From contig JBFLYR010000004.1 of NCBI GenBank assembly GCA_040756595.1, positions 22,695 through 86,694 on the forward strand: a stretch of 64,000 nt of DNA, given 5' to 3'. Positions 9,939 to 63,495 of the stretch are shown here, one piece after another (within the stretch, counting starts at the first letter, position 1; every line of letters starts with the position of its first letter). Origin of the DNA: Pseudomonadota bacterium (lineage in GTDB: Bacteria; Pseudomonadota; Gammaproteobacteria; Burkholderiales; Rhodocyclaceae). The translations under genes were made by a program, and so were the position numbers. The notes under the pieces were generated by a model. It ran no database searches. It had not been told where the DNA came from and saw only the letters and a list, made by a program, of their open reading frames with translations.

Positions 9939-9962
9939 AAAGTCGGCGCTGGCGGGACGGCA
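9939..9962 (+). repeat. 24-nt dispersed repeat, copy 1 (perfect)
   Basis: AAAGTCGGCGCTGGCGGGACGGCA. It is intergenic between the convergent PCuAC and metY genes and ends 1 nt before the metY stop codon. An upstream CCAGCGCCG (9927-9935) pairs with element nt 6-14. Confidence 0.95.
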
Positions 9963-9963
9963 C

Positions 9964-11235
9964 TCAGACGGCGGCGAGTGCCTGTTCCAGATCGGCCTTC
10001 AGGTCGTCGATGTGCTCGATGCCGATCGACAGCCGCACCATGTCTTCCGACACACCGGCCTTCGCCAGTTCGGCCGGCGAAAGCTGGCGGTGGGTCGTGC
10101 TGGCCGGGTGGCAGGCGAGGCTCTTGGCATCGCCGATGTTGACGAGGCGCGTGATGAGCTTGAGCGCATCCTGGAAGCGCGCGCCGCCGGTGGCTCCACC
10201 CTTGACGCCGAAGGTCAGGATGCCCGAAGCACGGCCGCCCATGTACTTCTGCGCCAGCGCATGCTCGCGGTGGTCGGGCAGGCCGGCGTAATTGACCCAG
10301 CCCACCTTGGCATGGCCCTTGAGGTACTCGGCCACGGCCTGCGTGTTGGCGCAGATGCGGTCCATGCGCACGGCCAGCGTCTCGATGCCTTGCAGGATCA
10401 GGAAGCTGTTGAAGGGTGAGATCGCCGCACCCATGTTGCGCAGGGGCACGACGCGCGCGCGGCCGATGTAGGCGGCCGGGCCGAGCGCTTCGGTATAGAC
10501 CACGCCGTGGTAGGAGACATCCGGCGTGTTGAGGCGCTTGAAGCGTTCCTTGTGGTCGGCCCAGGGGAACTTGCCCGAATCGACGAGCACGCCGCCGATG
10601 CTGTTGCCGTGGCCGCCGAGATACTTGGTGAGCGAATGCACGACGATGTCGGCGCCATGCTCGAACGGCCGGCACAGATAGGGTGTCGGCACGGTGTTGT
10701 CGACGATCAGCGGCACGCCGGCCGCGTGGGCGATTTCTGCGATGGCCGCGAGGTCGATGATGTTGCCGAGCGGATTGCCGATCGATTCGCAATACACCGC
10801 CTTGGTGCGCGAATCGATGAGAGGTTTAAAGCTCGCGGGGTCGCGATAGTCGGCGAAGCGCACCTCGATGCCATACTGCGGCAGCGTGTGGGCGAAGAGG
10901 TTGTAGGTGCCGCCGTAGAGCGTGCCCACCGAGACGATGTTGTCGCCGGCTTCGGCGATGGTCTGGATCGCATAGGTGATCGCCGCCGCGCCGGAAGCCA
11001 GACCCAGTGCGCCGATCCCGCCTTCCATCGCGGCCATTCGCTTCTCCAGCACGTCGGTGGTCGGGTTCATGATGCGCGTGTAGATGTTGCCGGCGACCTT
11101 CAGGTCGAACAGGTCGGCACCATGCTGCGTGTCGTCGAACGCGTACGAGGTGGTCTGGTAGATCGGCACCGCCACCGCTTTGGTGGTGGGGTCCGGGCTG
11201 TAGCCGCCGTGAACGGCGAGAGTTTCGATTTTCAT
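9964..11235 (-). CDS. metY: O-acetylhomoserine aminocarboxypropyltransferase/sulfhydrylase
   Basis: 423 aa, beginning [18 protein letters not shown], with a PLP-enzyme Cys/Met-metabolism fold ([10 protein letters not shown] lysine motif). Confidence 0.9.
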
Positions 11236-11386
11236 TGGATTCCCCTGCGTTGTTTTTGCTGCTGTTGTTGATAAACTAAGCTTTTCGCTCGATTATATGT
11301 ATCAATCTGATTTTTCGAAACACCCGAAAGATATCACCTGCTAACATCAATGTCCGACAAAACCAATCAAGCATCCGGAGAGACAC

Positions 11387-12316
11387 ATGCAAATCGCCAG
11401 CAACATCATTGAACTGATCGGCAACACCCCGCTGGTCAAGCTCAACCGCCTGAACACGACTCGGGCCACGATCGCGTTGAAGCTCGAATATTTCAACCCC
11501 GCGCACAGCGTCAAGGATCGCATCGCGGCGGCGATGATCGAGGCCGCCGAGCGTGCCGGCAAGATCAAGCCGGACACGATCATCCTCGAACCGACTTCCG
11601 GCAACACTGGCATCGGCCTCGCGATGGTCTGTGCGGCGCGCGGTTACAAGGCGACCTTCGTGATGCCCGAGACGATGAGCCGCGAGCGCAAGCTGATGCT
11701 CAAGGCCTTCGGCGCCGAACTGATCCTCACGCCCGGTCCGGAAGGCATGCCCGGCGCGATCAAGAAGGCGAACGAACTCGCGGCGGCCGATCCGCGTTAC
11801 TTCATCCCGCAGCAGTTTGATAACCCGGCCAACCCGACGATCCACCGCAAGACGACCGCCGAGGAAATCTGGCGTGATACCGATGGCCTGGTCGATATCT
11901 TCGTCTCGGGTATCGGCACGGGCGGCACGATCACCGGCGTGGGCGAAGTGCTCAAGGCGAAGAAGCCCGGCGTGCAGATCGTCGCGGTCGAACCCGATGC
12001 CAGCCCGGTGCTGTCCGGCGGCGCGCGTGGCCCGCACCCGATTCAGGGCATCGGCGCCGGCTTCGTGCCCAGCATTCTCAACACCAAGGTCTACGACGAG
12101 ATCGTGCGCGTCAAGAACGATGATGCGCTCACCACCGCACGTCGCCTTGCCAGCGAGGAAGGCCTGATGGTCGGCATCTCCTCCGGTGCCGCGGTGTGGT
12201 CGGCGCTGGAAGTCGCCAAGCGTCCCGAGAATGCCGGCAAACTGATCGTCGTCGTGATTCCTTCCTTTGGCGAGCGCTATCTCTCCACGGTGCTCTATCA
12301 GCATTTAGAAGTGTAA
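11387..12316 (+). CDS. cysK: Cysteine synthase A (O-acetylserine sulfhydrylase)
   Basis: 309 aa with NPAHSVKDR (PLP lysine), [12 protein letters not shown] and [10 protein letters not shown] motifs. Confidence 0.93.
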
Positions 12317-12355: not shown

Positions 12356-14338
12356 ATGCCCGCCCAACCTGATCTAGACCGACTTTTCGCCGCCGACGGC
12401 CCGCTCGCTCGGGCCATTCCCGGTTACCGCCTGCGCGAACAGCAGATCGCCATGGCGCGCGAAGTGCAGGCGGCCATAGAAGCCAATCGCCTGCTGGTCG
12501 CCGAAGCCGGCACCGGCACCGGCAAGACCTTCGCCTATCTTGCACCCGCATTACTCTCAGGCGGCAAGGTGGTCATCTCCACCGGCACCAAGACCCTGCA
12601 GGACCAGCTCTTCAACCGCGACCTGCCGACCGTGCGCGACGCACTCGGCATGCCGGCGACCATCGCCTTGCTGAAGGGGCGCGCCAACTACCTCTGCCCG
12701 CACCATCTCGACCGCGCGCTCTCCGGCGGCAAGCTCAACTCGCGCGCCGAAGTGATGCACTTGCATGCCATCGCACGCTTCGCCAAGCTCACCGCGAGCG
12801 GCGACAAGGCCGAATGCACCGACGTGCCCGAGGATTCCGGCGCGTGGTACCTCGCCACCTCGACGCGCGAGAACTGCCTCGGGCAGGAGTGCGCCCACGT
12901 CAAGGAATGCTTCGTCCTCGCGGCGCGGCGCGAGGCGCTGCTCGCCGACGTGGTGGTCGTGAACCACCACCTGTTCTTCGCCGACGTGATGCTCAAGGAC
13001 GACGGCATGGGCGAACTGCTGCCGAGCTGCAACACCATCATCTTCGACGAAGCGCACCAGTTGCCCGAAGTGGCCGGCCTGTTCTTCGGCGAGAGCGTCG
13101 GCACGGGCCAGTTGCTCGATCTCGCGCGCGATGCCAAGCTCGAAGGCATCGCCGCCGCCAAGGACTACAAGCCGCTGCAGGAGGCGGTGAAGGCGCTGGA
13201 AAAGGCGGCGAAGGACTTGCGCCTCGCCTTCCGCCACGAGGGCCGCCTCGCCACCGCGCAATGGCTCCAGCACCCGCAGGCCATCGAGGCGCTGAAGCAT
13301 GTGCAGGCGATGCTCGACGAGCTTGGCAAGCATCTCGAAAGCCAGGCCGGACGCTCGGAAGGGCTGGCCAACTGCCTGCGCCGCTGCGGCGAACTCGTGC
13401 TGCTGCTGCGCCATTGGCAGAACGCGAAAGTCGGCGCTGACAAGACGGCACAGGGGGAGGACGAAGAGGAAGAAGAAATTCAGCCGGTACGCTGGGTCGA
13501 AGTAACGACCTACGGTGTCAGCTTCAATCTCACGCCGCTGTCGGTCGCACCGATCTTCCGCAAGCAACTCGAAGGCCATCCGCGCGCGTGGATCTTCACC
13601 TCGGCGACACTCGCGGTCGGCGAGGACTTTTCGCATTACCGCAATGCGCTGGGATTGACGGAGGCCGCCACCGGCCGCTGGGACAGTCCCTTCGACTACC
13701 CGGTCAACGCGCTGCTCTATTGTCCGACCGGCATGCCCGACCCGAACCATCCAGATTATGCCGAGGCCGTGGTCGAAGCCTGCTGGCCGGCGATCAAGGC
13801 ATCGCACGGCCGGGCCTTCGTGTTGTGCACCAGCCTACGCGCGATGCGGCGTATCCACGAACTGCTGGAACTGCGCATTGAAAACGACAGGCTCGACATG
13901 CCGTTGCTGCTGCAGGGACAGCGTTCGAAGTCCGAGCTGCTCGACAGCTTCCGCCGCCTCGGCAATGCCGTGCTGGTGGCGAGCCAGAGCTTCTGGGAAG
14001 GCGTTGATGTGCGCGGCGAGGCACTTTCGCTCGTCGTCATCGACAAGCTGCCCTTCGCGCCGCCCGACGACCCGGTGCTCGCGGCGCGCATCGATACCCT
14101 GAAGCGTCAGGGCCGCAATGCCTTCTTCGAGGTGCAGTTGCCGCGCGCGGTGATCAGCATGAAGCAGGGCGCGGGGCGGCTGATCCGCGACGAGACCGAC
14201 CGCGGCGTGCTGATGGTCTGCGACCCGCGCATGGTCGACAAGCCTTATGGCCGGCGCATCTGGCAGAGCCTGCCGCCGATGCGGCGCACGCGCGAGATCG
14301 CCGACGTCGAAGCGTTTTTCGAGAATCAGGAGAGCTGA
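12356..14338 (+). CDS. yoaA: ATP-dependent DNA helicase, XPD-like Fe-S family (YoaA/DinG type)
   Basis: 660 aa with [18 protein letters not shown] (Walker A), DEAH (FDEAHQL), a four-Cys region (C..C..C..C around residues 115-185), and an N-terminus resembling E. coli YoaA as I recall it. Confidence 0.8.
13427..13450 (+). repeat. 24-nt dispersed repeat, copy 2 (3 substitutions)
   Basis: AAAGTCGGCGCTGACAAGACGGCA lies in frame in yoaA, read as KVGADKTA. It is followed by a purine-rich tract encoding QGEDEEEEE. Confidence 0.8.
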
Positions 14339-15746: not shown

Positions 15747-15990
15747 TATTGTTTTCCTATGGTCTTCACGAGGGGAGCCCCGTCGACCCACCATACGCGC
15801 ATTGCCCACATGTGCAAGACAATTCGTGACCTTGTCAGCAGAGTTCGCTACGAAGCGAAAACCCACATATCAAGCATGGGAAGCAGAATGTGGCCTGGTG
15901 TTATAGGGGAACCACGATATGCGGAAAGTTGGCACTGGCAGGAGGGTGATGCAAGTAAGATGAATACCCCCATTAAAGATTGACCCGACC

Positions 15991-17070
15991 ATGACCGATC
16001 TGTTTTCACCTGCCCGTTTCGGCGCCATCGAGCTTGCCAACCGCATCGTGATGTCGTCGCTGACGCGTAACCGCGCGGGGGCGGGCAACGTGCCGACGCC
16101 GCTGGTGGCCGAGTACTACCGGCAGCGCGCCAGCGCCGGCCTGATCCTCACCGAGGCGTCGCCGATCTGCCCGGCGGGGCACGGCTATCCGCGCACGCCG
16201 GGCATTCACAGCGAGGCGCAGATCGCCGGCTGGCAGGGCGTGACCGATGCGGTGCATCGTGCCGGCGGCAAGATCGCCCTGCAGATTTGGCATGTGGGCC
16301 GCATCTCGCATCCGGATTTGCAGCCCGGCGGCCAGTTGCCCGTTGCGCCGTCGGCGCTCAAGCCGGCCGGCCAGACGTTCACGGGCACGGGCATGAAGGA
16401 CTTCGTCACACCGCGCGCGCTCGCGACGGACGAGATTCCCGGGCTGGTGGCCACGTATGCGCAAGCGGCGAAGAATGCGCTGGATGCCGGCTTCGACGGC
16501 GTCGAGGTGCATGCCGGCAACGGCTATCTGATCGACCAGTTCCTGCGTTCGTCGACCAACCAGCGCACCGATGCCTACGGCGGCAGCAAGGAGAAGCGCG
16601 CCCGCCTGCTGCTGGAAGTGCTCGATGCCGTGGCCGGCGCCATCGGCAACGATCGCGTCGGCCTGCGGCTCTCGCCGGTCACGCCCTTCAACGACATCCG
16701 CGACGACGCGCCGCAGGACACCTTCGACTACGTCGTGACGCAACTGAACCCACGCCGGCTGGCCTTCCTCGACATCCTGCAGGGCACCGGCGGTTCGCCG
16801 CGCGAGCAGTGGGAACCGTTCGACTACGACCGCCTGCGTGATCTGTACGAAGGCAACCTGATCCTCAACAACGGTTACGACTTTGCCAGCGCGCAAGCGG
16901 CGCTCAGTGCGGGCAAGGCCGACGCCGTTGCCTACGGCCGGCTGCTGCTGGCGAATCCCGATCTCGTCGAACGTTTCCGCCGCGGCGCGCCGCTCAACCA
17001 GCCGGACTACGACAGGCTCTACGTCGGCGAGGAAAAGGGCTACACCGACTATCCCGCGCTGACAGGCTGA
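15991..17070 (+). CDS. nemA: NADH:flavin oxidoreductase / N-ethylmaleimide reductase (Old Yellow Enzyme family)
   Basis: 359 aa. It is collinear with E. coli NemA as recalled (PLTRxRA, EYYRQRASAGLI, HxANGYLxxQFL, GYTDYP at the C-terminus). Confidence 0.85.
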   Translation: MTDLFSPARFGAIELANRIVMSSLTRNRAGAGNVPTPLVAEYYRQRASAGLILTEASPICPAGHGYPRTPGIHSEAQIAGWQGVTDAVHRAGGKIALQIWHVGRISHPDLQPGGQLPVAPSALKPAGQTFTGTGMKDFVTPRALATDEIPGLVATYAQAAKNALDAGFDGVEVHAGNGYLIDQFLRSSTNQRTDAYGGSKEKRARLLLEVLDAVAGAIGNDRVGLRLSPVTPFNDIRDDAPQDTFDYVVTQLNPRRLAFLDILQGTGGSPREQWEPFDYDRLRDLYEGNLILNNGYDFASAQAALSAGKADAVAYGRLLLANPDLVERFRRGAPLNQPDYDRLYVGEEKGYTDYPALTG

Positions 17071-17093
17071 AAGTCGGCGCCGGCGAGACGGCA
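17070..17093 (+). repeat. 24-nt dispersed repeat, copy 3 (2 substitutions)
   Basis: AAAGTCGGCGCCGGCGAGACGGCA. Its first A is the last base of the nemA TGA stop codon. Confidence 0.9.
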
Positions 17094-17115: not shown

Positions 17116-18189
17116 ATGAAGCTTTCAGACCTTCCCGCCGATCTGCTGGCCGATCGGCCGCATCTGTTCTCTGCCGCCACCGTGCCGGTGACGGCGGACG
17201 ATATGGCGCGCATGCGGGAAGTGATCGACGCGGTCGAGCATGTGATTGCATTGAAAGTCGGCGCTGGTGAGACGGCAGCCGCAGCAGGGCACGGCGTCTT
17301 CATGGGCTACGACTTCCATCTGACGCCGGCCGGCCCGCAACTCATCGAGATCAACACCAATGCCGGCGGCGGGCTGCTCGCGGCATTGCAGGCGCAGCGC
17401 GACGACGTGCTGGCTGCCTACGCCGCGATGTTCCGCGCCGAATGCCCACGTGAACTCAAGGCGCTCGCCATCGTCGATGAACAGCCGGCGAGCCAGTACC
17501 TCTACCCGGAGTTCCTCGGCTTCAAGCAGTTGTTCGAGGCGCACGGCATCACGGCGGTGATCTGCGATCCGTCCGAACTGATGCTCTGCCACGGCAACCT
17601 TTGGCACGAGGAAACGAAGCTCGACCTCATCTACAACCGGCTCACCGATTTCGATTTTTCAATGCCGGCGCACGCGGTGCTGCGCGAGGCCTGGCGGCAG
17701 GGCGTGACGATCACGCCCAACCCGGTGCTGCACGCGCACTATGCCGACAAGAAGAACCTGATCGCTCTGACCGATGCCGCCCAACTGGAAGCTTGGGGCG
17801 TCGATGCCGGGACGCAACGCATCCTGCTCGATGGCATTCCACGCACCGAACAGGTTGCGACGGAACGTGCCGATGATTTCTGGCAGCGCCGCAAGCAACT
17901 GTTCTTCAAGCCGGCGCTGGGCTATGGCTCGAAGGGCTCATATCGCGGCGACAAGCTGACCAAGCGGGTGTTCGAGGAAATCCTCGCCGGCGACTATGTC
18001 GCGCAAGCCTTTGCTCCGCCGTCGACCGTCCCGCTTGATGTGGCCGGGGAAATGACCGAGCTCAAGGCTGATGTCCGCAACTATGTGTATCGTGGCGCGG
18101 TCCAACTGGTGGCAGCGCGCCTGTATCAGGGGCAGACGACGAATTTCAGGACACCGGGCGGCGGTTTCGCGAAGGTAATCGAGGCATGA
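17116..18189 (+). CDS. Uncharacterised protein, possibly ATP-grasp-like
   Basis: 357-aa ORF with good coding appearance. The motifs IEINTNAGGG and NFRTPGGGFA are reminiscent of ATP-grasp/GSP-synthetase-like folds. This is a weak, memory-based assignment. Confidence 0.5.
   Translation: MKLSDLPADLLADRPHLFSAATVPVTADDMARMREVIDAVEHVIALKVGAGETAAAAGHGVFMGYDFHLTPAGPQLIEINTNAGGGLLAALQAQRDDVLAAYAAMFRAECPRELKALAIVDEQPASQYLYPEFLGFKQLFEAHGITAVICDPSELMLCHGNLWHEETKLDLIYNRLTDFDFSMPAHAVLREAWRQGVTITPNPVLHAHYADKKNLIALTDAAQLEAWGVDAGTQRILLDGIPRTEQVATERADDFWQRRKQLFFKPALGYGSKGSYRGDKLTKRVFEEILAGDYVAQAFAPPSTVPLDVAGEMTELKADVRNYVYRGAVQLVAARLYQGQTTNFRTPGGGFAKVIEA
17254..17277 (+). repeat. 24-nt dispersed repeat, copy 4 (2 substitutions)
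   Basis: AAAGTCGGCGCTGGTGAGACGGCA lies in frame in the 17116 ORF and is read as KVGAGETA. Confidence 0.9.
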
Positions 18190-18683
18190 AGGTATTTGGC
18201 TTTGCCGGCTATTCCGGCTCGGGCAAGACGACGCTGATCGAGCAGCTGATTCCGCGCTTCACGGCGCGCGGGTTGCGCGTGTCGCTGATCAAGCATACCC
18301 ACCACAATTTCGACGTGGATCATCCGGGCAAGGATTCCTACCGCCATCGCGCGGCGGGTGCGGGCGAGGTGCTGCTGACCTGCGATACGCGCTGGGTGCT
18401 GATGCACGAACTGCGCGGCGCGACCGAGCCGACGCTGGCGGAACAGTTGCAGGTGTTGTCGCCCTGCGACCTCGTGCTGGTGGAGGGGTTCAAGCAGACG
18501 CCGATCTCCAAGCTCGAAATCCATCGCCCATCCTATGGCAAGCCGCCGATCTGGCCCGAGAATAAGAGCGTGGTCGCGGTGGCGACCGATGGCCAGATCG
18601 ATTGCCCGCTGCCGAAACTTGACCTCAACGACCCGGACGCCATCGTCCAATTCATCCTCGATTATCTGGATCGCCCATGCTGA
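18186..18683 (+). CDS. mobB: Molybdopterin-guanine dinucleotide biosynthesis adaptor protein MobB
   Basis: 165 aa, beginning MKVFGFAGYSGSGKTTLIEQLI (P-loop), with a LVEGFK motif. Confidence 0.88.
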   Translation: MKVFGFAGYSGSGKTTLIEQLIPRFTARGLRVSLIKHTHHNFDVDHPGKDSYRHRAAGAGEVLLTCDTRWVLMHELRGATEPTLAEQLQVLSPCDLVLVEGFKQTPISKLEIHRPSYGKPPIWPENKSVVAVATDGQIDCPLPKLDLNDPDAIVQFILDYLDRPC

Positions 18684-19978
18684 GTTACGAAGAAGCCCTC
18701 GATCATTTGCTTGCCGCCGCAGAGCCCGTGGCGGAAACGAAGCAGTTGCCACTCTCGGTTGCACGCGGCCGCATCCTCGCCGAAGCGGTCGCTTCGACCG
18801 TGACGGTGCCGCCGCTCGACAACAGCGCGATGGACGGCTATGCGGTGCGCTGCGCGGATGTCCAACAGACCGGTGTGGCATTGCCCATATCGCAGCGCAT
18901 CCCGGCGGGCAGCGTCGGCCATGCGCTCGCAGCCGGTACGGCAGCGCGCATCTTCACCGGCGCGCCGGTACCGGCCGGTGCCGATGCGGTGGTGATGCAG
19001 GAATATTGCACGCAAATGAGCGAGCACGGCCCCGATGGCAGGGTGATCGTCAATCAGGTGCCGAAGCCCGGCCAGAACATCCGCCGTGCGGGCGAGGACA
19101 TCACTGCCGGCGCCGCCGTGCTGCAAGCCGGCACGCGCATCGGCGCGGCCGAGATCGGCCTCGCGGCCTCGATCGGCATCGCGCAACTGCCGGTGCGGCG
19201 CCACCTGCGCGTCGCGCTGCTGTCGACCGGCGACGAGCTGACCGAACCCGGCAATCCCCTGCCGCCGGGCGGCATCTACAACTCGAACCGCCATTTCCTG
19301 CGTGCGATGTTCGAGCAGATGGGTTGCACGGTGACCGATGCCGGCCATGTGCCGGACACGCTCGATGCGACGCGTGCGGCGCTGCGCGCGGCGGCGGAAG
19401 CGCACGACCTGATCGTCACCTCCGGCGGCGTGTCGGTGGGCGAGGAAGATCACGTCAAGCCGGCGGTCGAGGCGGAAGGCGCGCTGTCGCTGTGGAAGAT
19501 CGCCATCAAGCCGGGCAAACCGCTGGCCTTCGGCCATGTGCGAAAAGTCGGCGCTGGGCCGTCCCAAGCCGACGCCCCCCCTGTGGGGGGCAGCGAGCCG
19601 GGTTTGCGAGCGAGGGGGGCCAATAAAGTCGGCGCTGGCGGGACGGCATTCATCGGCCTGCCGGGCAACCCGGTTTCCTGCTTCGTGACCTTCCTGCTGT
19701 TCCTGCGCCCCTATGTGCTGAAGCGCATGGGCATGGCGACCACCTTGCCGCTGGCGCGTCAACTCGTGTCGGCGTCCGACTGGACCAAGCCCGAGGATCG
19801 GCGCAGCTTCCTGCGCGCGCGCATCGCGCCGGACGGCCGCGTCGAGTTGTATCCGAACCAGAGTTCCGGCGTGCTGACCTCCTGCGCCTGGGCCGACGGA
19901 CTGGTGGATGTCGAGGCGAACAAGACCTTCAAGGCGGGCGACCCGGTGCGCTATCTCGCCTTCGCCGACTTGCTATAG
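18677..19978 (+). CDS. moeA: Molybdopterin molybdenumtransferase MoeA (carries an in-frame insertion of about 35 codons)
   Basis: 433 aa with the motifs PPLDNSAMDGYAV, SGGVSVGEEDH, KPGKPLAFG and GLPGNPVS. The insertion lies between the last two motifs. Confidence 0.9.
   Translation: MLSYEEALDHLLAAAEPVAETKQLPLSVARGRILAEAVASTVTVPPLDNSAMDGYAVRCADVQQTGVALPISQRIPAGSVGHALAAGTAARIFTGAPVPAGADAVVMQEYCTQMSEHGPDGRVIVNQVPKPGQNIRRAGEDITAGAAVLQAGTRIGAAEIGLAASIGIAQLPVRRHLRVALLSTGDELTEPGNPLPPGGIYNSNRHFLRAMFEQMGCTVTDAGHVPDTLDATRAALRAAAEAHDLIVTSGGVSVGEEDHVKPAVEAEGALSLWKIAIKPGKPLAFGHVRKVGAGPSQADAPPVGGSEPGLRARGANKVGAGGTAFIGLPGNPVSCFVTFLLFLRPYVLKRMGMATTLPLARQLVSASDWTKPEDRRSFLRARIAPDGRVELYPNQSSGVLTSCAWADGLVDVEANKTFKAGDPVRYLAFADLL
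19544..19557 (+). repeat. 24-nt dispersed repeat, copy 5 (5' 14 nt only)
   Basis: AAAGTCGGCGCTGG is followed by GCCGTCCCAAGCCGAC, which resembles a deleted reverse-orientation copy. It lies in frame in moeA. Confidence 0.7.
19625..19648 (+). repeat. 24-nt dispersed repeat, copy 6 (perfect)
   Basis: AAAGTCGGCGCTGGCGGGACGGCA lies in frame in moeA and is read as KVGAGGTA. Confidence 0.95.
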
Positions 19979-50987: not shown

Positions 50988-51009
50988 TTCGTTGCGCCAA
51001 CGCCAAAAG

Positions 51010-51897: not shown

Positions 51898-51912
51898 GAG
51901 TTGCAGATTCCC

Positions 51913-52239
51913 ATGTCGCCACCTGAACAACCCGGATTCATCGGCAAACTGGTTTCCGTCATCATCGGTGCGATGCTGCTGGTGCTCGGCTTCATGTTCT
52001 CGATGGTGCTGCTGGCCGCCATCGTCGTTGTGGGTCTTGCCATCTGGGCCTGGTTCTGGTGGAAGACCCGGAAGCTGCGCCAGCAGATCGACGCACGCAT
52101 GCGTGAAAGTGCGGCGAATGCGCATGACTCGACCGGCGGCGACATCATCGAGGGTGAGGCGGTGGTCGTCGAAGAAGAGATTACTCGGGTAACTTCGAAT
52201 CGATTGCCAGAGTCACCGGACCGGCGTTCACCAGACTGA
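51913..52239 (+). CDS. Small membrane protein (hypothetical)
   Basis: 108 aa from ATG 51913 with two hydrophobic helices followed by an acidic tail. Its 3' 59 nt overlap the convergent dtd gene, so the true C-terminus is uncertain. Confidence 0.4.
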
Positions 52240-52633: not shown

Positions 52634-52684
52634 GATGGACGCGAGTATAGCGATTCGCCGCCGCGATTCGGCTAGCATTCGGGG

Positions 52685-55600
52685 ATGCTGCACATCCACC
52701 ATGGCAATCGTCCGGACAGCCTCGTCGCCGCGTTGACGACGCTGTTGCGCGTCGATCCGCTGCCGCTGCTGGAACCGGAAACCATCGTCGTCCCCTCGAC
52801 CGCGATGGCGCGCTGGCTGGGCTTCCAGCTTGCGGACGGGCTGGGGATCGCGGCCCAGAATGCCTTCGTCTTTCCGGCGTCCTACGTCTGGCAATTGTTC
52901 GGCCGCGTGCTGCCCGACGTGGCGACGAGCAATCCCTTCGACCGGGATGCAATGCATTGGCGCCTGCTGCGTTTGCTGGGTGACAGTCGCGCACCGGAAA
53001 TCCGCCATTACCTCGACGGGGATGACGGTGCACGCCAGTACGAACTGGCGGGAAAGCTTGCCAGCCTGTTCGATCGTTATCTCGTCGAGCGGCCCGACTG
53101 GATCGCGGCATGGAGTGCAGGCAAGCGGCTCGGCCTCGGTCCGGATGAAGTCTGGCAATCCGGACTCTGGCGCACGTTGCGCGCCGACCTGCCAGAGGTT
53201 GCGACGGAACATCCGCGCGAGCGCTTCCTCGCGGCATTGCGTGCCCAACCGGCCGTGCGTGCGCGCCTGCCGCGCCGACTCAGCCTGTTCTGTGTCGAGG
53301 CGATGCCTGCGCTGTATTGGGAAGTCTTTGTCGGACTCGCAGTGTGGCTCGACGTGCATGTCTTCGTGCTGGCGCCCTGTCGCGAATACTGGGGCGACAT
53401 CGAGAAAATGCGTGAACGGCTGCGCATGGAACTCGAACAACCCGAGGCGGCCCTGCTTTATGAAACCGGCCATCCGCTGCTGGCCTCGCTGGGCCGGGCG
53501 CGCCAGCATGCGGTGCTGCGGCTTGCCGATGCTGCAACGCAGACCGCCAGTGCCGAACATGAGTATTTCGTTGCTCCGCCCTCGACATTGTTGGGTGCCT
53601 TGCAGCGCGACATCCTTGACCTTTCGGCCAGTCGCGCGGTAGCGATGGACGCCACGCTGCAGATCCACGACTGCCACGGTGCGCAGCGCGAAGCAGAGGT
53701 ACTGCTCGACCGCCTGCTCGATCTGTTCGAACGGCTGCCGGATTTGCGACCAGCCGACATTCTGATCCTCACGACCGACATCGAAGCCTACGGTCCGATC
53801 ATCGAGGCCGTGCTGGCACATGCGCCGCGGGAGCGGCGTATTCCATGTACCGTGGCCGACCGGCCGCTCGCCATTGCGCCGCTCTGGCGCGCGCTGCGTC
53901 AGCTGTGCGTCGTGGCGGCGGGTGAGTTCGATGCGGAAAGCGTGCTGTCCCTGCTTGACGAACCCGCGCTGCGGCGCGCATTCGACATCGATGAAAACGA
54001 ATTGCCGCGACTGCGCGACTGGGTGGGCGAGGCTGGCATCCGCTGGGGCATCGACGGCGCGGCGCGTGCCCGACATGGTCTGCCGGCGGAAGATGCCCAC
54101 AGCTGGCGTGCCGGGCTACAGCGGCTGCTACTGGGCGTGGCGTTGCCGGATGCGCCCGAGCGTCTGTGGCAGGGCATGCTGCCGGTGACGGGAATCGAAG
54201 GCGAGCGGGCTGAGTTGCTGGGCCGTTTCGTCGATTTCACCGAAGCTTTGTTTGGGCTGAGTGAAAAAGTCGGCGCTGGCAGGACGGCATCGGAATGGTG
54301 TCGGCTGCTTGCCGCGACGCTGGAACACTTTCTCGCACCCGACGAAGCGGAGGAGGGGCAGGCGCAAGGCTTGCGGGAAACGCTGACCCGGCTCGGCGAA
54401 CTGGCGGATTCCGCGCGATGCGCCACCCGGCTGCCGTTGTCGGTGCTATTGCGTGAAATTGATGAACGGCTGAAAGAGCAGGCGCCCGCACAGGCATTCG
54501 TTTCCGGCACGGCGACGATCGCGGCGCTGCAACCCGGCCGTCCCGTTTCCGCGCGTGTCATCTGTCTCGTCGGCATGAACGACGGGGCCTGGCCGCGCCC
54601 GGCGACGCCACAGGGTTTCGACCTGATGGCCGCGCATCCGCGTCCCGGTGATCGCAACCGGCGCGGCGAGGAGCGTCATGCTTTCCTCGAAGCACTGCTG
54701 TGCGCGGGAGATGCCCTGATCGTCACGTATGCCGGGCGCGATCCGCGCAGCAACCTTGAATTGCCGCCCGCTGCACCGCTCGCCGAACTGATCGACACTC
54801 TTGTGGCAATGACCGGGAAAGCGGCCGATGCGCTGGTAGTGCAGCATCCATTGCAACCCTTTGGCAGCGCGTATTTCGATGGTAGAGACACGCGTATCTT
54901 CAGTTTCGATGCCGAGCATTGCCGACAAGCCTCCGTGCCGGCAGCCTCCGCATTCCTTGGCCGGAAGGTGCGTGTCGAAGCGCTTGACGTTGATGAAATC
55001 GACCTGCCGGAACTGCAGCGCTTTTTTGCTCACCCGGTGCGTCATTTCCTGCGCGAGCGCATGGGCATCCATCTCGAAGAGTCCGAGGAATTGCTCGACA
55101 TGCACGAACCCTTCGTGCCGAATGCGCTCGAAGCCTACCGGTTGCGGGAGGCGCAGTTCGCAGGGCTGGTGGCCGGCCACCCGGTTGATGAGGTGACCGC
55201 GCTATTGCATGCCCGTGGCTGGTTGCCGCAGGGGGTGGCGGGCGACCTGGCCGCGCGCGCGGCGCACGACGAGGCATTGCCGCTCTGGCAGAGCGCGCAA
55301 GCCTGGCTCGATGCAGGGCGCCAACCTGACTGCGCGGTGGAATTCGCAGCGCACGGGATACGCCTGAGCGGCCGGCTCGACGGCCTGACCGACCGCGGAC
55401 TCTGGCGCGTGCGCCACGGCAAGCTGCGCGCGAAGGACCGCTTGCGCCTGTGGCTCGATCATCTGCTGCTGAATGTCGCGGCGCCGGCCGGTGTGCCGCT
55501 GCACAGCAGCTTGATTGCCCGCGATGCGTTCATGCAGCTCGTACCGGAACCGCGTGCGCGTGAGGTTCTGGCTGGTCTGCTGGCGCTCTATCGTGATGGC

Positions 55601-55831
55601 TTGCTGCAGGCCTTGCCCATCTATCCGGAAACGGCGTGGGCCTGGTTGGAACAGAAGAACTGGCGCCGGGAGTGGGAGGGCGATGCTTTCAACTACAAGC
55701 CTGGCGAGCGCGATGACGCATATGTGCGCCTGGCCTTGCGCGATCGCCCGGAAGACCCGCTCGGCGCTGAGTTCCAGCAATTGGCAGAGCACATCTTTGG
55801 CCCCCTGAAACAGAAAGTCGGCGATGGCTGA
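52685..55831 (+). CDS. recC: Exodeoxyribonuclease V gamma subunit
   Basis: 1048 aa, beginning MLHIHHGNR...L, as is typical of RecC. It is followed by overlapping recB and recD genes. Confidence 0.9.
54266..54289 (+). repeat. 24-nt dispersed repeat, copy 16 (1 substitution)
   Basis: AAAGTCGGCGCTGGCAGGACGGCA lies in frame in recC and is read as KVGAGRTA. Confidence 0.93.
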
Positions 55832-55837
55832 ACGGCA
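55814..55837 (+). repeat. 24-nt dispersed repeat, copy 17 (3 substitutions)
   Basis: AAAGTCGGCGATGGCTGAACGGCA. The substitutions create the recB ATG (55824) and the recC TGA (55829-55831). Confidence 0.75.
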
Positions 55838-58800
55838 CTTCGTTCCCCTCGATTCGCCTTTCGAGGTCGAACTGACCGGCACGCGCCTGCTCGAAGCCGG
55901 CGCCGGTACCGGCAAGACCTGGATGCTGGCCGCGCTGGTCCTGCGCCTGCTGCTTGAACAGCAGATCGAGATTGGCAAGATCCTCGTCGTCACCTACACA
56001 CGCGCAGCCAGCGGCGAGCTGCGCGGCCGCGTTCGTGCCCGGCTGGTCGAGGCGCTCGCGGCTTTCGATGCGGGTCGCGCGGATGAACCCTACTTGCAAG
56101 CGCTGGTCGAGCGCATCGGTACCACGGGTACCGCTGGCGCCACCGCTGCCAGGGTACGCCTGCGGCTGGCGATCGAGAGCTTCGACGAAGCGTCCATCTT
56201 CACGATCCACGGTTTCTGCCAGCGCGCGCTCGGCGAAACGGCCTTCGCCGCCGGCCAAGCTTTCGAACGTGAATTGATTGCCGATCAGGGCGAGTTGCTC
56301 GCCGCCGTGGCACGTGATGCCTGGCGCAGGGAAATGGCGACGGCCTCGCCGCTCTGGGCGCAATGGCTGATTGACCACGTGCAGGGACCGGAGGGGCTGG
56401 CCGCCATCGTCAGATCGCATCTGGGACGCGTCGATGCGCGACTTGAAGCCCCCGCTCAGGTGGATCGGAAAGCCGCGGAGCAGCGCTTTGCCGCTGCCTT
56501 CGTAATGGTCAGGGACCTCTGGAAAGCCGATGCGGCGCGGATTCTCGACTGGCTGGCTGGCGCGAAACTGAACCAGCAAAGCTACAGCGCGAAGAAGATG
56601 CAGCCGCGCAGCGTTGCGCTCGGATTGTGGCTGTCCGCTGAACCACCCCTGTCGCCCCTGCTGCCTTTGCCCGAGGGCATCGAACATTTCGGGCTGGCGA
56701 AGATCGCGGCCAAGTTGAACAAAGGCGGTCAATTGCCGCAGCATGCTTTCTTCGCTGCCATGGACGAGCTGCTGCAATCCGCTGGCGAATTGCAGGCGGC
56801 TTGCGAAAGCGCGACGCGCCGGCTGCTGCAGGATTTCCTGCTGACTGCGCGAACCGGGCTTGCGGAGAGAAAACGGCGCAGTGGCCAGCAGACCTACGAT
56901 GACCTGCTGGTCGACCTCGCGCAGGCGCTCGACGGCCCGGCCGGGCCCCGACTGGTTGATAGCCTGCGGGCGCGCTACCGCATCGCCCTCGTCGATGAGT
57001 TCCAGGACACCGATCCGCTGCAGTTGCGAATCTTCATGTGTATCTTCGGTACCGACGAACGGCCGCTGATTTTCGTCGGCGATCCGAAACAGGCGATCTA
57101 CGGTTTCCGTGGTGCCGACGTATTCGCCTATCTCAAGGCGCGCACGCAAGCGGACACCGGTTATGCGCTGTTGGAGAATCGGCGCTCCGATCCGCCGCTG
57201 CTCAAGGCGGTGAATGCGCTGTTCGCCCGGCCGCTGCCGTTCCTGCTCGACGGCATGCCTTACGAGCCTTCCCGTGCGGCGGACAGGGTGCGGGAGATCT
57301 GCCGGATCGATGATGACGCCGCGCCGCTGTCACTCTGGACGATGCAAGCGCCCGAGGGCGGAAAAGGCTTCCCGAAGGACACGGCGCGCACGATGGCTGC
57401 CGAGGCCGTCGCCGCCGATATCGCGCGGCTGTTGGGCCTGAGCGCCACGGGGCGCGCGACGCTCGGCGAACGTCCTCTGGGCGGCGGCGATATCGCCGTG
57501 CTGGTGCGCCGGCATCGGGATGGTGATCTGGTCCGGCAGGCGCTGGCGCGGCACGGCATCCCCAGCGTCAGCGGCGGTGGTGGCAGCGTCTGGCACAGCG
57601 ATGAGGCAGTCGAGATCGAACGGCTGCTGCTCGCGGTGGCCGCGCCGGCGCGCGAGGGCTTGGTGCGCGCGGCATTGGCGACGATATTGCTCGGCGCGGA
57701 TGCAGCGCAGCTGGCAGCATGGCTGCACGATGAACCGGCGTGGAGTGCGCGCCTCGATTGCTTTCATGATGATCTGCTGCTATTCCGCGAACGCGGCTTC
57801 ATGGCGATGTGGCGCCGGCTGCTGCGCCGCGAAGGTGTTGTCGCGCGCGTGCTGGAACGGCCGGATGGCGAGCGGCGGCTGACCAACTACCGCCATCTGG
57901 CCGAATTGCTGCAGGCCGCCGAACAGGGCGCTGCGCTCGATGTCGAGGGGCTCGCGCGTCATATCGCGCAGCAGCGGCAGGCACCGGAAGGCGAGGAGAG
58001 CCAGTTGCGGCTGGAAAGCGACGCGCATCTCGTGCGCATCGTCACCCTGCATGCCGCGAAGGGTTTGCAATACCCCATTGTGTATTGTCCCTTCCTCTGG
58101 CTGGGACCCGAGGAGGACAAGACGGGCTGGCCCGTATTGGCACATCATGAGGGCAAAGCCTGCCTCGACTTCGGCTCGGAAGGCATCGACGGCCTGCGGG
58201 CGGCGGCGGATCGCGAGGACGCGGCCGAGGAGCTCCGGCTCGCCTACGTCGCGCTGACGCGCGCCGAACATCGCTGCATCCTTGCCTGGGGCAAGGTGAA
58301 CAACTGCGCCCGCTCGCCGCTCGCCTGGCTGCTGTTCGGGCCGCGCGAATCCGTGGCCGAAGAACCGCGTGTCTGGCTGGCGCGTTGGCTGGAAACCCAT
58401 GACGAAAGCGCGGCGCTGCACGCGCTCGAAGCGGGCCTCGACAGAGCCTTGAAGGTGATGCCGTTGCCGGGCGACGGTAGCGCGCCGCTGCCGCCCGCGG
58501 AAACGGTGCGAGCACATCGGCCACGGGACTTCATGAGCAAGGTGCCCGCGCCGTGGCGGGTTCAGAGCTTCTCGTCGCTCGCTGCCCGTCTCTCCGAAGA
58601 GGCGGAAACCGCCGATCGCGACGCGGTCGTGCCAGCCAGTGCCGTACCGCCAGCGCCGACTTTTTCGAATATTCAAAACTTCCCGCGCGGCACACGTGCC
58701 GGTAGCTGCCTGCATGCCTTGTTCGAGCGCATCGATTTCCAGGGCCGCACGCCAGTCGGCCCGACCGCCGCTGCGACGCTGGTGGCCTTCGGTTACGCGC

Positions 58801-59273
58801 CCGACTGGCAGCCGGTGCTCGAGCGACTGGTGGCGGATGTCCTGGGCACGACTTTGAATGCGGATGGGCTGCGGTTGGCCGACGTGCCGCGCGGCGAACG
58901 ATTGGTCGAGCTCGAGTTCACCTTCCCGTTTGGTTCGGCAGCGGAGCGTGCCGGCTACATGAAGGGCTTCATCGACCTCGTGTTCCGTCATGCAGGTCGC
59001 TGGTACATCGTCGACTGGAAGTCGAACTGGCTGGAAGACTATGGGCCGGCGTCCCTCGCCGCCGCCATGCAGGCGCATCGCTACGAGTTGCAGGCGCGCA
59101 TCTACGCGGCCGCCCTCAAGCGGGCGCTGGCTGTGCGCGAGCCGCAAAATGACTGGGAGAGTAGCTTCGGCGGCATGTTCTACCTGTTCCTGCGCGGCAT
59201 GGCGCCGGGCAGTTCGGACGGGATCCATTTTTTCCGGCCAGCGATTGACGAGATTGCGGAATTTCTGTCATGA
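55824..59273 (+). CDS. recB: Exodeoxyribonuclease V beta subunit (helicase-nuclease)
   Basis: 1149 aa with UvrD-like motifs (EAGAGTGKTW, DEFQDTD, RSDPPLL) and a C-terminal PD-(D/E)xK nuclease (GFIDLVF..YIVDWKSN). Confidence 0.93.
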   Translation: MAERHFVPLDSPFEVELTGTRLLEAGAGTGKTWMLAALVLRLLLEQQIEIGKILVVTYTRAASGELRGRVRARLVEALAAFDAGRADEPYLQALVERIGTTGTAGATAARVRLRLAIESFDEASIFTIHGFCQRALGETAFAAGQAFERELIADQGELLAAVARDAWRREMATASPLWAQWLIDHVQGPEGLAAIVRSHLGRVDARLEAPAQVDRKAAEQRFAAAFVMVRDLWKADAARILDWLAGAKLNQQSYSAKKMQPRSVALGLWLSAEPPLSPLLPLPEGIEHFGLAKIAAKLNKGGQLPQHAFFAAMDELLQSAGELQAACESATRRLLQDFLLTARTGLAERKRRSGQQTYDDLLVDLAQALDGPAGPRLVDSLRARYRIALVDEFQDTDPLQLRIFMCIFGTDERPLIFVGDPKQAIYGFRGADVFAYLKARTQADTGYALLENRRSDPPLLKAVNALFARPLPFLLDGMPYEPSRAADRVREICRIDDDAAPLSLWTMQAPEGGKGFPKDTARTMAAEAVAADIARLLGLSATGRATLGERPLGGGDIAVLVRRHRDGDLVRQALARHGIPSVSGGGGSVWHSDEAVEIERLLLAVAAPAREGLVRAALATILLGADAAQLAAWLHDEPAWSARLDCFHDDLLLFRERGFMAMWRRLLRREGVVARVLERPDGERRLTNYRHLAELLQAAEQGAALDVEGLARHIAQQRQAPEGEESQLRLESDAHLVRIVTLHAAKGLQYPIVYCPFLWLGPEEDKTGWPVLAHHEGKACLDFGSEGIDGLRAAADREDAAEELRLAYVALTRAEHRCILAWGKVNNCARSPLAWLLFGPRESVAEEPRVWLARWLETHDESAALHALEAGLDRALKVMPLPGDGSAPLPPAETVRAHRPRDFMSKVPAPWRVQSFSSLAARLSEEAETADRDAVVPASAVPPAPTFSNIQNFPRGTRAGSCLHALFERIDFQGRTPVGPTAAATLVAFGYAPDWQPVLERLVADVLGTTLNADGLRLADVPRGERLVELEFTFPFGSAAERAGYMKGFIDLVFRHAGRWYIVDWKSNWLEDYGPASLAAAMQAHRYELQARIYAAALKRALAVREPQNDWESSFGGMFYLFLRGMAPGSSDGIHFFRPAIDEIAEFLS
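58640..58663 (-). repeat. 24-nt dispersed repeat, copy 18 (1 substitution)
   Basis: The + strand reads TGCCGTACCGCCAGCGCCGACTTT. The copy lies antisense in recB, is read as AVPPAPTF, and sits just before the nuclease domain. Confidence 0.93.
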
Positions 59274-60859: not shown

Positions 60860-60862
60860 GTT

Positions 60863-61108
60863 TTAGCGGCCCTGCTGGATCTTGTTGAGCATGCGGGCGC
60901 GGCCGGAAGCTTCGGCCTGGTTGGCCGCCGAAACCTGCCGACCGTAGGCGTCGCGATCCTCCTTGGAGCGCTTCACGGCCTCGATGCTCTTGATACAGCG
61001 CCAACGCGATCCTGTCTTGGTGATCAGCAACTTCATCTCCTCCACGGGATGATGAGTGCGGCAGTGATAGCAGTAGCGTGTCGCGGGTTCTTTTTTCTCG
61101 GTACTCAT
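60863..61108 (-). CDS. Small conserved-looking hypothetical protein
   Basis: 81 aa and basic, with a CYHC...C pattern. It has an ATG with an upstream ribosome-binding-site-like sequence. I recognise no family. Confidence 0.45.
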   Translation of the reverse strand: MSTEKKEPATRYCYHCRTHHPVEEMKLLITKTGSRWRCIKSIEAVKRSKEDRDAYGRQVSAANQAEASGRARMLNKIQQGR

Positions 61109-61155
61109 AAGCCTGCGGATTATACCTGTTTCGATTATTTTGCTTAATACCTCTG

Positions 61156-63495
61156 CTATGACGCCGGCTGCAGGCCGGTCGGCTTGAGTTTGGACGGAAT
61201 GGCGTGGCCCTTGCGGGCACGCTGGCCGCGATAGGCGGCGGCATCCTTGCCGGACAACTTCCAGTCGGTCGGTTTACCCCCTCGGCCACTACCGGTGACG
61301 ATGAAACTGTCGGCACCGACAGCGACGGCGGCCAGCTCGTCCTTGGCGTCAAGCGTCTGGATGATGGTGCCGCGCCCCTTGGCCATGGTCTTGAGTTCGG
61401 CGAGCGGGAAGAGCAGCAGCCGGCCGCAGGCCGTAATCGCTGCTGCCGTCCCGCCAGCGCCGACTTTTGCCGGGACGAGCGGCTTCTCGCCCTTGTCGAG
61501 CGACATGAAGGCCTTGCCGGCGCGGTTGCGCGAGACGAGATCGGCAATGCCGGCGATGAAGCCGTAGCCGCCGGAATTGGCGAACAGGTACTGCGTTTCC
61601 GGCGCATCGGTGAGCGCGTGGGCAAGCTTGCTGCCGTCCTGGAAGTCGACCAGCGTGGTGATCGGCACCCCGTCGCCGCGACCGCCCGGCAGGTCGGCCA
61701 CGCGTACGCTGTACGCTCTGCCATTGGTGTCGATGACGACCAGCGGCCAGATCGTGCGGCTTTCCTGAACGATATAGGGGAAGTCACCGGTCTTGTATCC
61801 GATGCTGGCCGGATCGATGCCATGGCCCTGGCGCGTGCGCACCCAGCCGTTCTTAGAGACGATCACGGTCACCGGCTCGTCGGGGATCGCGACTTCCGCG
61901 GCGGTCACCGGGGCGACGGCCTCAATTAGCGTACGGCGCTCGTCGCCGTATTTCTTCGCGTCCTCGGTGATCTCGCGCACGACGAGTTTGGTCAACTCCT
62001 TGCGGTCTTCGAGGATGCGGCGCAGTTCCTTCGCTTCCTCGGCCAGCGCCTTCTGTTCCTGCTCGATCTTGATGCCTTCGAGTTTCGCGAGCTGGCGCAG
62101 GCGGATTTCGAGGATGTCCTCGGCCTGAATCTCCGAAAGCTTGAACTTGGCCATCAGTTCGGCCTTGGGTTCGTCGGCCTCGCGGATGGTCTTGATGATC
62201 TTGTCGATCGACAGGAAGGCGAGCAGGCGGCCAGCGAGGATGTGCAGGCGGCGCTCGACTTCGCAGAGGCGGTGGGCGGAACGACGCTCGACGGTGGCAT
62301 GGCGGAACTGCACCCATTCGTGCAGCACCTGCAGCAGGTTTTTTTGCGCCGGCCGGCCATCGGTGCCCATCATGGTCATGTTGACCGACACGTTGGCTTC
62401 GAGGCTGGTGCGCGCGAGCAGTACGGCCATGAACTCGTCCTGCGGCACCTTCGACGTGCGCGGCTCCAGCACGATGCGCACGGGGTCCTTTTCGTTCGAT
62501 TCGTCGCGCACGGCGTCGAGCACGCCGAGCATCACCTGCTTGAGGTTCTTCTGCTCCTGCGAGACATCCTTCTTGCCCGGGCGTGCTTGCGGGTTGGTGA
62601 CGGCCTCGATTTCCGAGAGTACTTGCGCCGTGGAAACACCATGCGGCAGTTCGTAGACGATGACGCGCCACTGGCCGCGCGCCAGTTCCTCGATGCGCCA
62701 GCGGCAGCGCATGCGGACGCTGCCGCGGCCGGATTCGTAGGCGGCGCGGATGTCGGCATGGAGCGAGATGATCTGGCCGCCGCCGGGAAAGTCCGGGCCG
62801 GGCAGGGCGGCAAGCACTTCATCGAGCTGCGCACTCGGTTTGCGGATCACCAACTTGAGTGCTTCAGCCACTTCGCGCAGGTTGTGCGGTGGAATCTCGG
62901 TGGCCATGCCGACGGCGATGCCCGAGGCACCGTTGAGCAGCACGAAGGGCAGGCGGGCGGGCAGCAGCGACGGCTCGGTCATCGTGCCGTCATAGTTGGG
63001 CACGAAGTCGACCGTGCCCTTGTCGATCTCCGCTAGCAGCAGTTCTGCAATCGGTGTCAGGCGGCATTCGGTGTAGCGCATCGCCGCCGCGCCGTCGCCG
63101 TCGCGCGAGCCGAAGTTGCCTTGGCCGTCGACCAGCGGATAGCGCAGCGAGAAGTCCTGGGCGACGCGCACCATGGCGTCGTAGACGCTGCTGTCGCCGT
63201 GGGGGTGGAACTTGCCGATGACGTCGCCGACCACGCGCGCCGACTTGACGTGCTTGGCCGTCGACGGCAGGCGCATGTCGTTCATCGCGTGGAGGATGCG
63301 GCGCTGCACCGGCTTCAAGCCGTCTTCGACCTGCGGCAGGGCGCGCGATTTCACCACGCTCATCGCGTAGGCGAGGTAGGCGCGCTCTGCATAACTGTCG
63401 AGGGGCAGCGCCTCGCCTTCTGCAAAAGTCGGCTCTGGTGGGACGGCAGGGGGCGGCAGATCTGCCGCTGCTTCGAAAAGATCAGGCGTGTTCAT
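61156..63495 (-). CDS. parC: DNA topoisomerase IV subunit A
   Basis: 779 aa with the motifs [11 protein letters not shown], the AAMRYTE catalytic Tyr block and a C-terminal beta-pinwheel. Its start overlaps the parE stop codon (ATGA). Confidence 0.93.
61444..61467 (-). repeat. 24-nt dispersed repeat, copy 19 (perfect)
   Basis: The + strand reads TGCCGTCCCGCCAGCGCCGACTTT. The copy lies in sense and in frame in the parC C-terminal domain and is read as KVGAGGTA. Confidence 0.95.
63425..63448 (+). repeat. 24-nt dispersed repeat, copy 20 (2 substitutions)
   Basis: AAAGTCGGCTCTGGTGGGACGGCA lies antisense in the parC N-terminal extension and is read as AVPPEPTF. Confidence 0.9.

Follow-up and report, generated by a model that had tools for sequence, protein, structure and literature searches.

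We analyzed a 64-kb stretch of DNA from a Rhodocyclaceae bacterium (64,000 nucleotides of contig JBFLYR010000004.1, called the window in the following) together with fragments of up to 22 kb from relatives, focusing on a 24-nt word, AAAGTCGGCGCTGGCGGGACGGCA, that recurs throughout the window. Judged by its open reading frames (ORFs) and Pfam domains, the window is an ordinary core-genome region, with four tRNAs, a gene for a DinG-like helicase, and moeA, clpB, tig, clpP, clpX, lon, dtd, recC, recB, recD and parC. It also has ORFs sized like NADH-dehydrogenase (nuo-type) membrane subunits, an assignment for which ORF size is the sole basis. ORF and Pfam annotation of the window revealed no mobile-element or transposase-like genes.

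Sites of the word in the window

A mismatch search identified 18 matches to the word with at most three mismatches in the window, where 0 are expected, and none of 100 dinucleotide-preserving shuffles of the window gave any match. Three matches are perfect (9939, 19625 and 61444), seven have one mismatch, six have two, and two have three. Beyond these, there is a word with four mismatches at 52331 and a half word, consisting of the 5' 14 nt, at 19544. A first-pass annotation of this DNA had listed the same 20 copies, and we confirm all its positions and strands, its count of three perfect copies with 52331 as the worst (four substitutions), and its claim of a frequency far above chance. An independent ORF and Pfam gene map also bears out its placement of 15 of the 20 copies within coding sequence; the remaining five are found 0-6 nt from a stop codon. 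A decayed word with six mismatches at 15925-15948 (+), upstream of an old yellow enzyme (OYE) flavin oxidoreductase gene, is additional to the earlier list, and its ortholog in the related locus L192 has two mismatches.

The distance between words ranges from 184 to 8,107 nt. The sequences flanking the words are mutually unrelated (with an A at position -1 in 56% of words), so that the unit is sharply 24 nt long, and no other substantial repeat family is present in the window. The 16:4 strand split of the window words is local and not general across other loci.

Stop codons of neighboring genes cluster directly at either word end. Of the five words outside coding sequence, the perfect word at 9939-9962 (+) lies in intergenic DNA, 1 nt past the stop of a minus-strand gene for a Cys/Met pyridoxal-phosphate enzyme (9964-11235). 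The word at 17070-17093 (+, two mismatches) overlaps the TGA stop of the OYE gene (15991-17070) by one base, its own first A, and the first A of the word at 38298-38321 (+, one mismatch) completes the TAA stop of a pseudouridine synthase gene (37540-38298). The word at 33176-33199 (+, one mismatch) directly follows the TGA stop of a methyltransferase gene (32348-33175) and is filled in L195, and the word at 35865-35888 (-, one mismatch) lies 6 nt past the stop of an ABC-F gene (35895-37526, minus strand) and is filled in L191 and L192.

Among the words inside genes, seven full copies are read in sense frame 0. They encode KVGADKTA in an indel-rich segment of the DinG-like helicase gene (13427-13450, +, three mismatches; gene 12356-14338), KVGAGETA in a gene for a hypothetical protein (17254-17277, +, two mismatches; gene 17116-18189), KVGAGGTA in moeA (19625-19648, +, perfect; gene 18677-19978), KVGAGGTA in the hypervariable loop of clpB (24563-24586, +, one mismatch; gene 23000-25594), KVGADRTA in an amine-oxidase/HpnE-like gene (42939-42962, -, two mismatches; ORF 41907-43637, minus strand), KVGAGRTA in recC (54266-54289, +, one mismatch; gene 52685-55831) and KVGAGGTA in the C-terminal domain of parC (61444-61467, -, perfect; gene 61156-63495, minus strand). 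The site at 17254 is filled in L192, L193 and L195 and corresponds to a longer unrelated segment in the word-less loci L111 and L114. The moeA loop reads KADGKAW in the word-less L114 and KAS in L133, and the parC word is exact in L101 and L005. Also in moeA are the first 14 nt of a word (19544-19557, +), split off from the rest by an inserted 67-nt element rich in G and C runs (19558-19624, +), which we call X and discuss below.

Six further words are read in antisense. They encode PSRQRRL in codons 3-10, within the signal-peptide-like N-terminus, of a YkuD L,D-transpeptidase gene (29554-29577, +, two mismatches; gene 28427-29584, minus strand; filled in L191, L192 and Sulfuricystis thermophila), CRPARADF in a rhodanese-domain gene (39894-39917, +, one mismatch; gene 39603-40658, minus strand), SRLASADF in a squalene/phytoene synthase gene (44224-44247, +, two mismatches; gene 43999-44823, minus strand), SRAARADF in dtd (52331-52354, +, four mismatches; gene 52181-52636, minus strand), AVPPAPTF in a linker of recB (58640-58663, -, one mismatch; gene 55824-59273; filled in L005) and AVPPEPTF in the N-terminal tail of ParC (63425-63448, +, two mismatches; a word with three mismatches at the same site in L101). 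Finally, the word at 55814-55837 (+, three mismatches) holds both the recC stop (KVGDG*) and the ATG start of recB at 55824. The recC stop and the recB start overlap there (ATGGCTGA), so that the word spans a translationally coupled gene junction.

Frame preferences extend beyond the window. We scanned the reading frames of 252 word copies; calling based on the G+C content of third codon positions is noisy, and only copies for which both flanks agreed were counted. Sense frame 0 (KVGAGGTA) was found in 25 copies, antisense AVPPAPTF in 16, sense frame +1 (KSALAGR) in 9 and antisense CRPASADF in 8. The two arginine-rich frames, SRRWRDG and PSRQRRL, were found in none. The sole arginine-rich case is the YkuD word of the window, which the two-flank scan missed and which forms the positively charged n-region of a signal peptide.

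The genes under the strongest constraint carry no words; these are the putative nuo membrane subunits (assigned by ORF size) and tig-clpP-clpX-lon. The longest word-free gap (44248-52330, 8.1 kb) contains tRNA-Leu, tig, clpP, clpX, lon, tRNA-Val and a membrane transporter gene. There is also no word before 9939; the three long plus-strand ORFs that by size alone suggest NADH-dehydrogenase-type membrane subunits are found there (1700-6701), and the AT skew of positions 1-8000 is strongly negative (-0.18 to -0.19) at a G+C content of 0.58, below that of the rest of the window. Between the words at 33176 and 35865, the segment 33200-35860 contains short ORFs without Pfam match and a gene for a PEP-CTERM protein (34887-35498). 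As L191 and L192 have different genes downstream of the methyltransferase gene, this segment is a local rearrangement hotspot.

In-place writing, conservation and distribution

The word occupies existing residues and is written without added length. In Dtd (52331) the residues SRAARADF align with E. coli Dtd with no length change and no gap, and the same is true for KVGAGRTA in RecC (54266), which takes the place of GLAQERPL in the E. coli protein. The ParC of the window is one residue shorter than its E. coli counterpart at 61444 (KVGAGGTA versus VIEDASDML), and its RecB is one residue longer at 58640 (AVPPAPTF versus VV-EEPTL). The Pfam domains of squalene synthase and Dtd align about 1:1 across the word. 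The word-bearing hypervariable loop of ClpB has the same length in the word-less L111, L113 and L116, and the L111 loop (AAGGCGGGCGAGGGCAAGGCCACG) matches the word at 13 of 24 bases. Altogether, no gain of eight codons was seen in the six alignable genes (Dtd, RecC, RecB, ParC, ClpB and squalene synthase; seven sites), and word-less orthologous sites have a same-length sequence, either unrelated or half-matching. The words at 13427, at 17254 and in moeA lie in indel-rich segments that are longer or shorter than the orthologs without rule.

Transposition predicts a gain of 24 nt, which was not observed in the aligned genes, and the insertion model is thus unsupported. We therefore rejected mobile insertion of the 24-mer, as the six host proteins differ by 0-1 residue from E. 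coli or word-less homologs. The first-pass annotation had implied dispersed inserted copies by speaking of a repeat family, and had proposed to score filled against empty sites in relatives. Words in genes replace existing residues instead, the "empty" orthologs have the same length (as in the ClpB of L111), and sites stay filled across species.

Conservation was assessed in 19 orthologous pairs with checked synteny, each made up of a window site and its counterpart in a relative obtained via ClpB and not via the word, with 60 nt on each side as flanks. The word is 90.8% identical in these pairs, versus 82.8% for the flanks (74.8% if indels are counted as differences), and 25 of the 42 differences in the word fall on positions 12, 15, 17 and 24. 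Positions 3, 6, 18 and 21 show a single change in the 19 pairs, even though changes there would be synonymous in the 12 sense-frame pairs. This near-invariance at would-be synonymous positions indicates a constraint on the DNA, not on the peptide. About 20 of the 24 positions are constrained, and the two best-conserved blocks form a direct repeat, GTCGGC and GACGGC, 14 nt apart.

Orthologous word sites remain filled in relatives of 76-93% identity. In species with flanks of 72-84% identity, both alleles usually match the word at 24 of 24 positions while adjacent bases differ, a comparison that is biased by the choice of loci for an exact copy. Most of 120 ClpB homologs (88-100% identity) encode the word, and the surrounding loop changes by indels. 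In a 169-kb set of word-bearing DNA (described below), words with 0, 1, 2, 3, 4, 5 and 6 mismatches number 6, 14, 23, 8, 4, 2 and 3, respectively, with a peak at one to two mismatches and almost no decayed tail. Sub-words of 10 nt hardly ever occur outside full words, so that there is no shorter core. Separately, six ClpB homologs (P0023, P0042, P0051, P0069, P0076 and P0111) have an interrupted or duplicated word peptide (for example KVGAG-QGEH-GA, KVGADG-DNQ-TA, KVSEGTQSAGAGDTA and NLNAGGTTPAGVGAGGTA), and their sequences suggest small indels or duplications inside the word.

The exact 24-mer was found in at least 110 stretches, which belong to about 39 Rhodocyclaceae/Sterolibacteriaceae assemblies at species level. 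Among the matches listed, the carriers are nearly all metagenome-assembled genomes labelled Rhodocyclaceae, Sterolibacteriaceae, Sulfuritalea, Sulfurisoma or "Methyloversatilis", produced by numerous projects with a variety of assemblers; the exact word is also present in the closed 3.05-Mb chromosome OW818671.1. The 1.87-Mb contig BAAFTW010000001.1 is a further carrier. In word-bearing DNA picked without regard to the word (the window and the ClpB loci L191-L195, 169 kb), 57 matches with at most five mismatches were identified, versus none in 619 kb of word-less DNA of similar G+C content from other Betaproteobacteria. The density in the 169-kb set is about one word per 3 kb, or 0.8% of the DNA, which by extrapolation would give about 1,000 words in a genome of 3-4 Mb. 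In the cultured Sulfuricystis thermophila (AP019373.1) words are less dense, and both the ClpB and the YkuD sites are among those filled.

No match was found in E. coli genomes. The word is also absent from L111, L113 and L114, which are syntenic with the window and have a ClpB 83-87% identical to that of the window, and from 75 other betaproteobacterial loci. A metagenome scan with ClpB gave mostly distant loci, which were used as negative controls. None of the 80 betaproteobacterial loci had a comparable word of its own lineage. A dialect of the word, AAAGTCAGY...GGCG..ACGCYG, occurs in the sister lineages L209 and L210, with nine hits in 22.6 kb of L210 and three in L209, versus five in 617 kb of background.

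Phage origin was considered and rejected, as the exact word occurs in only 13 of 2.9 million IMG/VR contigs. An IMG/VR contig (3300009945_000063, our L196) has at 629-2123 and 3489-4269 a 316-nt unit in 4.7 tandem repeats, each unit carrying a single word together with an attC-like pair (GTTAGGC/GCCTAAC); the neighboring ORF has an N-terminus resembling that of integron integrases. From the attC-like pairs and this neighbor, it looks like an integron array of duplicated cassettes. In L195, a two-gene island absent from the window (7939-9937; DUF4411 and a gene with helix-turn-helix and M78-peptidase domains) lies between opposed words at 7939 (+) and 9914 (-).

Possible readers of the word

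Our preferred reading is that of a double-strand DNA signal spread over the whole genome, as opposed to a mobile repeat. The closest published parallels are the DNA uptake sequences (DUS) of Neisseriaceae, a 12-mer (ATGCCGTCTGAA) with dialects, and the uptake signal sequences (USS) of Pasteurellaceae, a core (AAGTGCGGT) in a consensus of about 30 nt. The DUS receptor in Neisseria is a ComP-type minor pilin. Since the word shares the published DUS/USS signature, we rank as the best explanation, tentatively and at somewhat less than even confidence, a DNA-uptake-like signal of self-recognition that is kept by molecular drive or selection. From this likeness we infer a protein reader and DNA uptake as the underlying process. 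A clade-specific factor, most likely part of a DNA-uptake or transformation pathway, would read the word as a mark of "self" DNA, and alleles that match better would be preferentially fixed, either by molecular drive (biased uptake and recombination) or by direct selection. The word would be written by substitution or allele replacement wherever the genome tolerates it, that is, in variable protein loops in small-residue frames, in protein tails and in the first bases after stop codons, and once written it would be held near consensus.

Several points weigh against this explanation. To our knowledge, no competence phenotype, receptor or uptake bias is on record for the clade of the word. DUS and USS are 9-12 nt long, whereas the word has 24 nt of which about 20 are constrained, and it has no core-only class; recognition by a receptor would need to extend over two helical turns. 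Because the length differs in this way, the word can be called uptake-sequence-like, and its membership in the DUS/USS class is unproven. Words with five to seven mismatches are few, yet a stepwise build-up by point substitution needs a graded advantage for partial matches. The distribution is not clean by ClpB identity: L126 (Ga0233425_10000005), with a ClpB only 82% identical to that of the window, contains six words within 22.6 kb, and L111 (87%) and L113 (86%) have none, a patchiness that implies loss in some lineages or lateral spread. Lastly, terminators hold about half of the DUS and USS copies (bioRxiv 10.1101/2025.10.24.684340), as inverted pairs; none were seen for the word in the window and the inspected loci, where they were not systematically counted, and intergenic words abut stop codons singly and not as pairs.

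The chief rival, possible but rather doubtful, is a binding site of a clade-specific chromosomal factor unrelated to uptake, with direct selection at each site. Examples would be a nucleoid or condensin-type organizer, or a mark of self that a nuclease or defence system recognizes as RecBCD recognizes Chi. The constraint at the DNA level, the writing in place and the restriction to a clade fit such a factor equally well, a fully constrained site of 24 bp is more in keeping with a specialized DNA-binding protein than with a pilin receptor, and the direct repeat GTCGGC/GACGGC suits tandem protein contacts. Spacing also points slightly in this direction, as in five of six sets the words are a little more evenly spaced than random (coefficient of variation 0.47-0.72 versus 0.83-0.93 expected, p 0.03-0.27). 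This evidence is weak, as the sixth set (L192) is not more even (0.94 versus 0.88) and the loci overlap, so that the sets are not independent.

Against a chromosomal factor, no candidate protein can be named, and polarity of the type of Chi or of the FtsK-orienting polar sequences (KOPS) is absent. In 110 loci, 107 words are co-oriented and 126 counter-oriented with GC skew (Spearman rho -0.05, p 0.60), and neighboring words share orientation weakly (84:60, p 0.055). The Chi-like center of the word, GCTGGCGG, is its least conserved and most variable part and is degenerate in the dialect. Chi/KOPS polarity was rejected on these grounds. We know of no chromosomal signal that combines an asymmetric 24-nt word, a density of about one per 3 kb and no strand polarity.

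The word might stand for something new, which we regard as unlikely: a class of genome-wide self-marker with a purpose other than uptake, in which an asymmetric signal of 24 bp, or two helical turns, would be read by a protein or a nucleic-acid guide at about a thousand sites, including recB, recC, parC, clpB and dtd. In a variant of this idea, patches of 24 nt would be overwritten in place from a template.

Improbable in our view is a tiny mobile or copy-writing element, similar to the cyanobacterial repeats of 21-27 nt, which would be spread by a trans-acting enzyme or patch-writer while selection purges copies that are not tolerated. Such an element would fit the sharp boundaries, the behavior of the whole 24 nt as one unit with a length that is a multiple of three, and a master sequence with close variants. 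At some sites, such as DinG and, relative to L133, MoeA, there is also a net gain in length over relatives that lack the word. The element would, however, have to be reconciled with the missing eight-codon gain at the seven sites, with the lack of target duplications, terminal repeats and hairpin, with the lack of a transposase-like gene in the window, and with orthologous words that stay near consensus at divergences where neutral copies should decay, leaving few relics.

Small-element mobility does exist in these genomes, as shown by X, which has inserted into a word and is found in tandem in L026. In the moeA of the window alone, an in-frame insertion of 81 nt follows word position 14 and consists of the 67-nt X and a repeat of word nt 1-14; the MoCF domain of the window is 26 residues longer than the Pfam profile. 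The X core has the form C7-TGT-G6, then GCAGCGAGCC, a variable loop and GAGCG-G6, and belongs to a family of elements of about 60-70 nt. X-like sequences were found inside words in L007 (~620-684), L026 (two units in tandem) and L102 (5916-5953), and outside words in L038 (~1700-1790) and L026 (X coordinates in L026 overall 4908-5103 and 7956-7980). X has no Rfam family (with only chance-level hits around the composite) and no significant fold, its core was not found in IMG/VR contigs, and a plasmid search with the composite of word and X gave only a weak partial match to a plasmid of Azoarcus sp. KH32C. We also considered the 24-mer as the solo remnant of a 105-nt composite and rejected this, as the moeA word is uninterrupted in L192, L193 and L195, which makes the composite the derived state. 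X is a separate small element that is able to land in the word and does not explain it.

An origin of the word by chance or from base composition, or as contamination from assembly or adapters as considered in the first-pass annotation, is refuted by the shuffles, by the 619 kb of G+C-matched relatives, by words in frame inside intact conserved genes, and by the exact word in about 39 independent assemblies made with different assemblers, with a closed chromosome in addition.

The word bears on the question of whether sequence-specific self-recognition in DNA uptake has evolved beyond Neisseriaceae and Pasteurellaceae, the only families from which DUS and USS were known as of a 2025 preprint (bioRxiv 10.1101/2025.10.24.684340). 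It provides the genomic signature of an uptake sequence in free-living and mostly uncultured Rhodocyclaceae/Sterolibacteriaceae, at twice the known length, and it is powerful enough to remodel stretches of eight residues in repair and chaperone proteins that are essential. Should the word turn out to be an uptake signal, it would represent a third independent system, whose receptor has to recognize about 24 bp, and could be put to practical use in transforming sulfur and nitrogen cyclers of environmental importance. Otherwise, it would constitute a chromosomal signal of a new kind. In both cases, it is a clean natural case of pressure at the DNA level overriding protein sequence, and it can serve as a diagnostic marker in contig binning for this clade.

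Comparison with known repeats and signals

The first-pass annotation had set the word apart from several known classes and had not recognized it as a described family, and our data agree. Clustered regularly interspaced short palindromic repeats (CRISPR) form regular arrays with unique spacers of 25-70 nt, unlike the window words with their spacing of 184 to 8,107 nt. Miniature inverted-repeat transposable elements and insertion sequences do not fit the unrelated flanks and the lack of terminal inverted repeats and target duplications. The word is not palindromic and has no significant secondary structure or hairpin (fold z-scores +0.37 and +0.14), unlike repetitive extragenic palindromic (REP), bacterial interspersed mosaic and enterobacterial repetitive intergenic consensus elements. 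A hairpin or structured RNA was rejected because of these z-scores and because Rfam has no family for the word, the four tRNAs being the only hits above the gathering threshold in the window. The searchable literature contained no paper with the word or its reverse complement, and none linking uptake sequences or repeats to these taxa.

Chi (GCTGGTGG) differs by one base from GCTGGCGG in the word and has a similar density; that the window encodes RecBCD is a coincidence. Small dispersed repeats (SDR, 21-27 nt) were reportedly described by Elhai et al. in 2008 from Nostoc and other cyanobacteria and are said to be inserted, structured and mobile units. They resemble the word in unit size, in high copy number and in nested insertion (X in the word), but the word has no significant fold and adds no length. 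REP doublets with their RAYT transposases (REPIN-RAYT) and the Ssn-linked hairpin repeats (NTS/dRS3) are, like the word, short, present in hundreds of copies and clade-specific in sequence, with a dedicated reader presumed. They differ from it as hairpins that are almost always extragenic, and an Ssn-type hairpin repeat was rejected because the word has no hairpin and is mostly genic. The share of copies inside genes is 2% for NTS repeats versus 34% for DUS (PMC11893778), compared with 15 of 20 for the window words.

The known uptake sequences come closest. Their hosts are host-associated bacteria, whereas the clade of the word is environmental. Two partial likenesses in sequence may serve as leads and no more: TGCCGTC is the start of the word's reverse complement, as it is of the Neisseria AT-DUS, and the 5' end of the word, AAAGT.CGG, resembles the Hin-USS. 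Permissive sites in the core genome, conservation above that of the flanks, dialects and a bias in reading frame have been described for DUS and USS (PMC2397512; bioRxiv 10.1101/2025.10.24.684340), and all of these are seen for the word. Further features in common are a scale of a thousand copies or about 1% of the genome (by extrapolation for the word), occurrence in either orientation and in both genic and intergenic DNA, the preservation of protein length, and outsiders without the motif.

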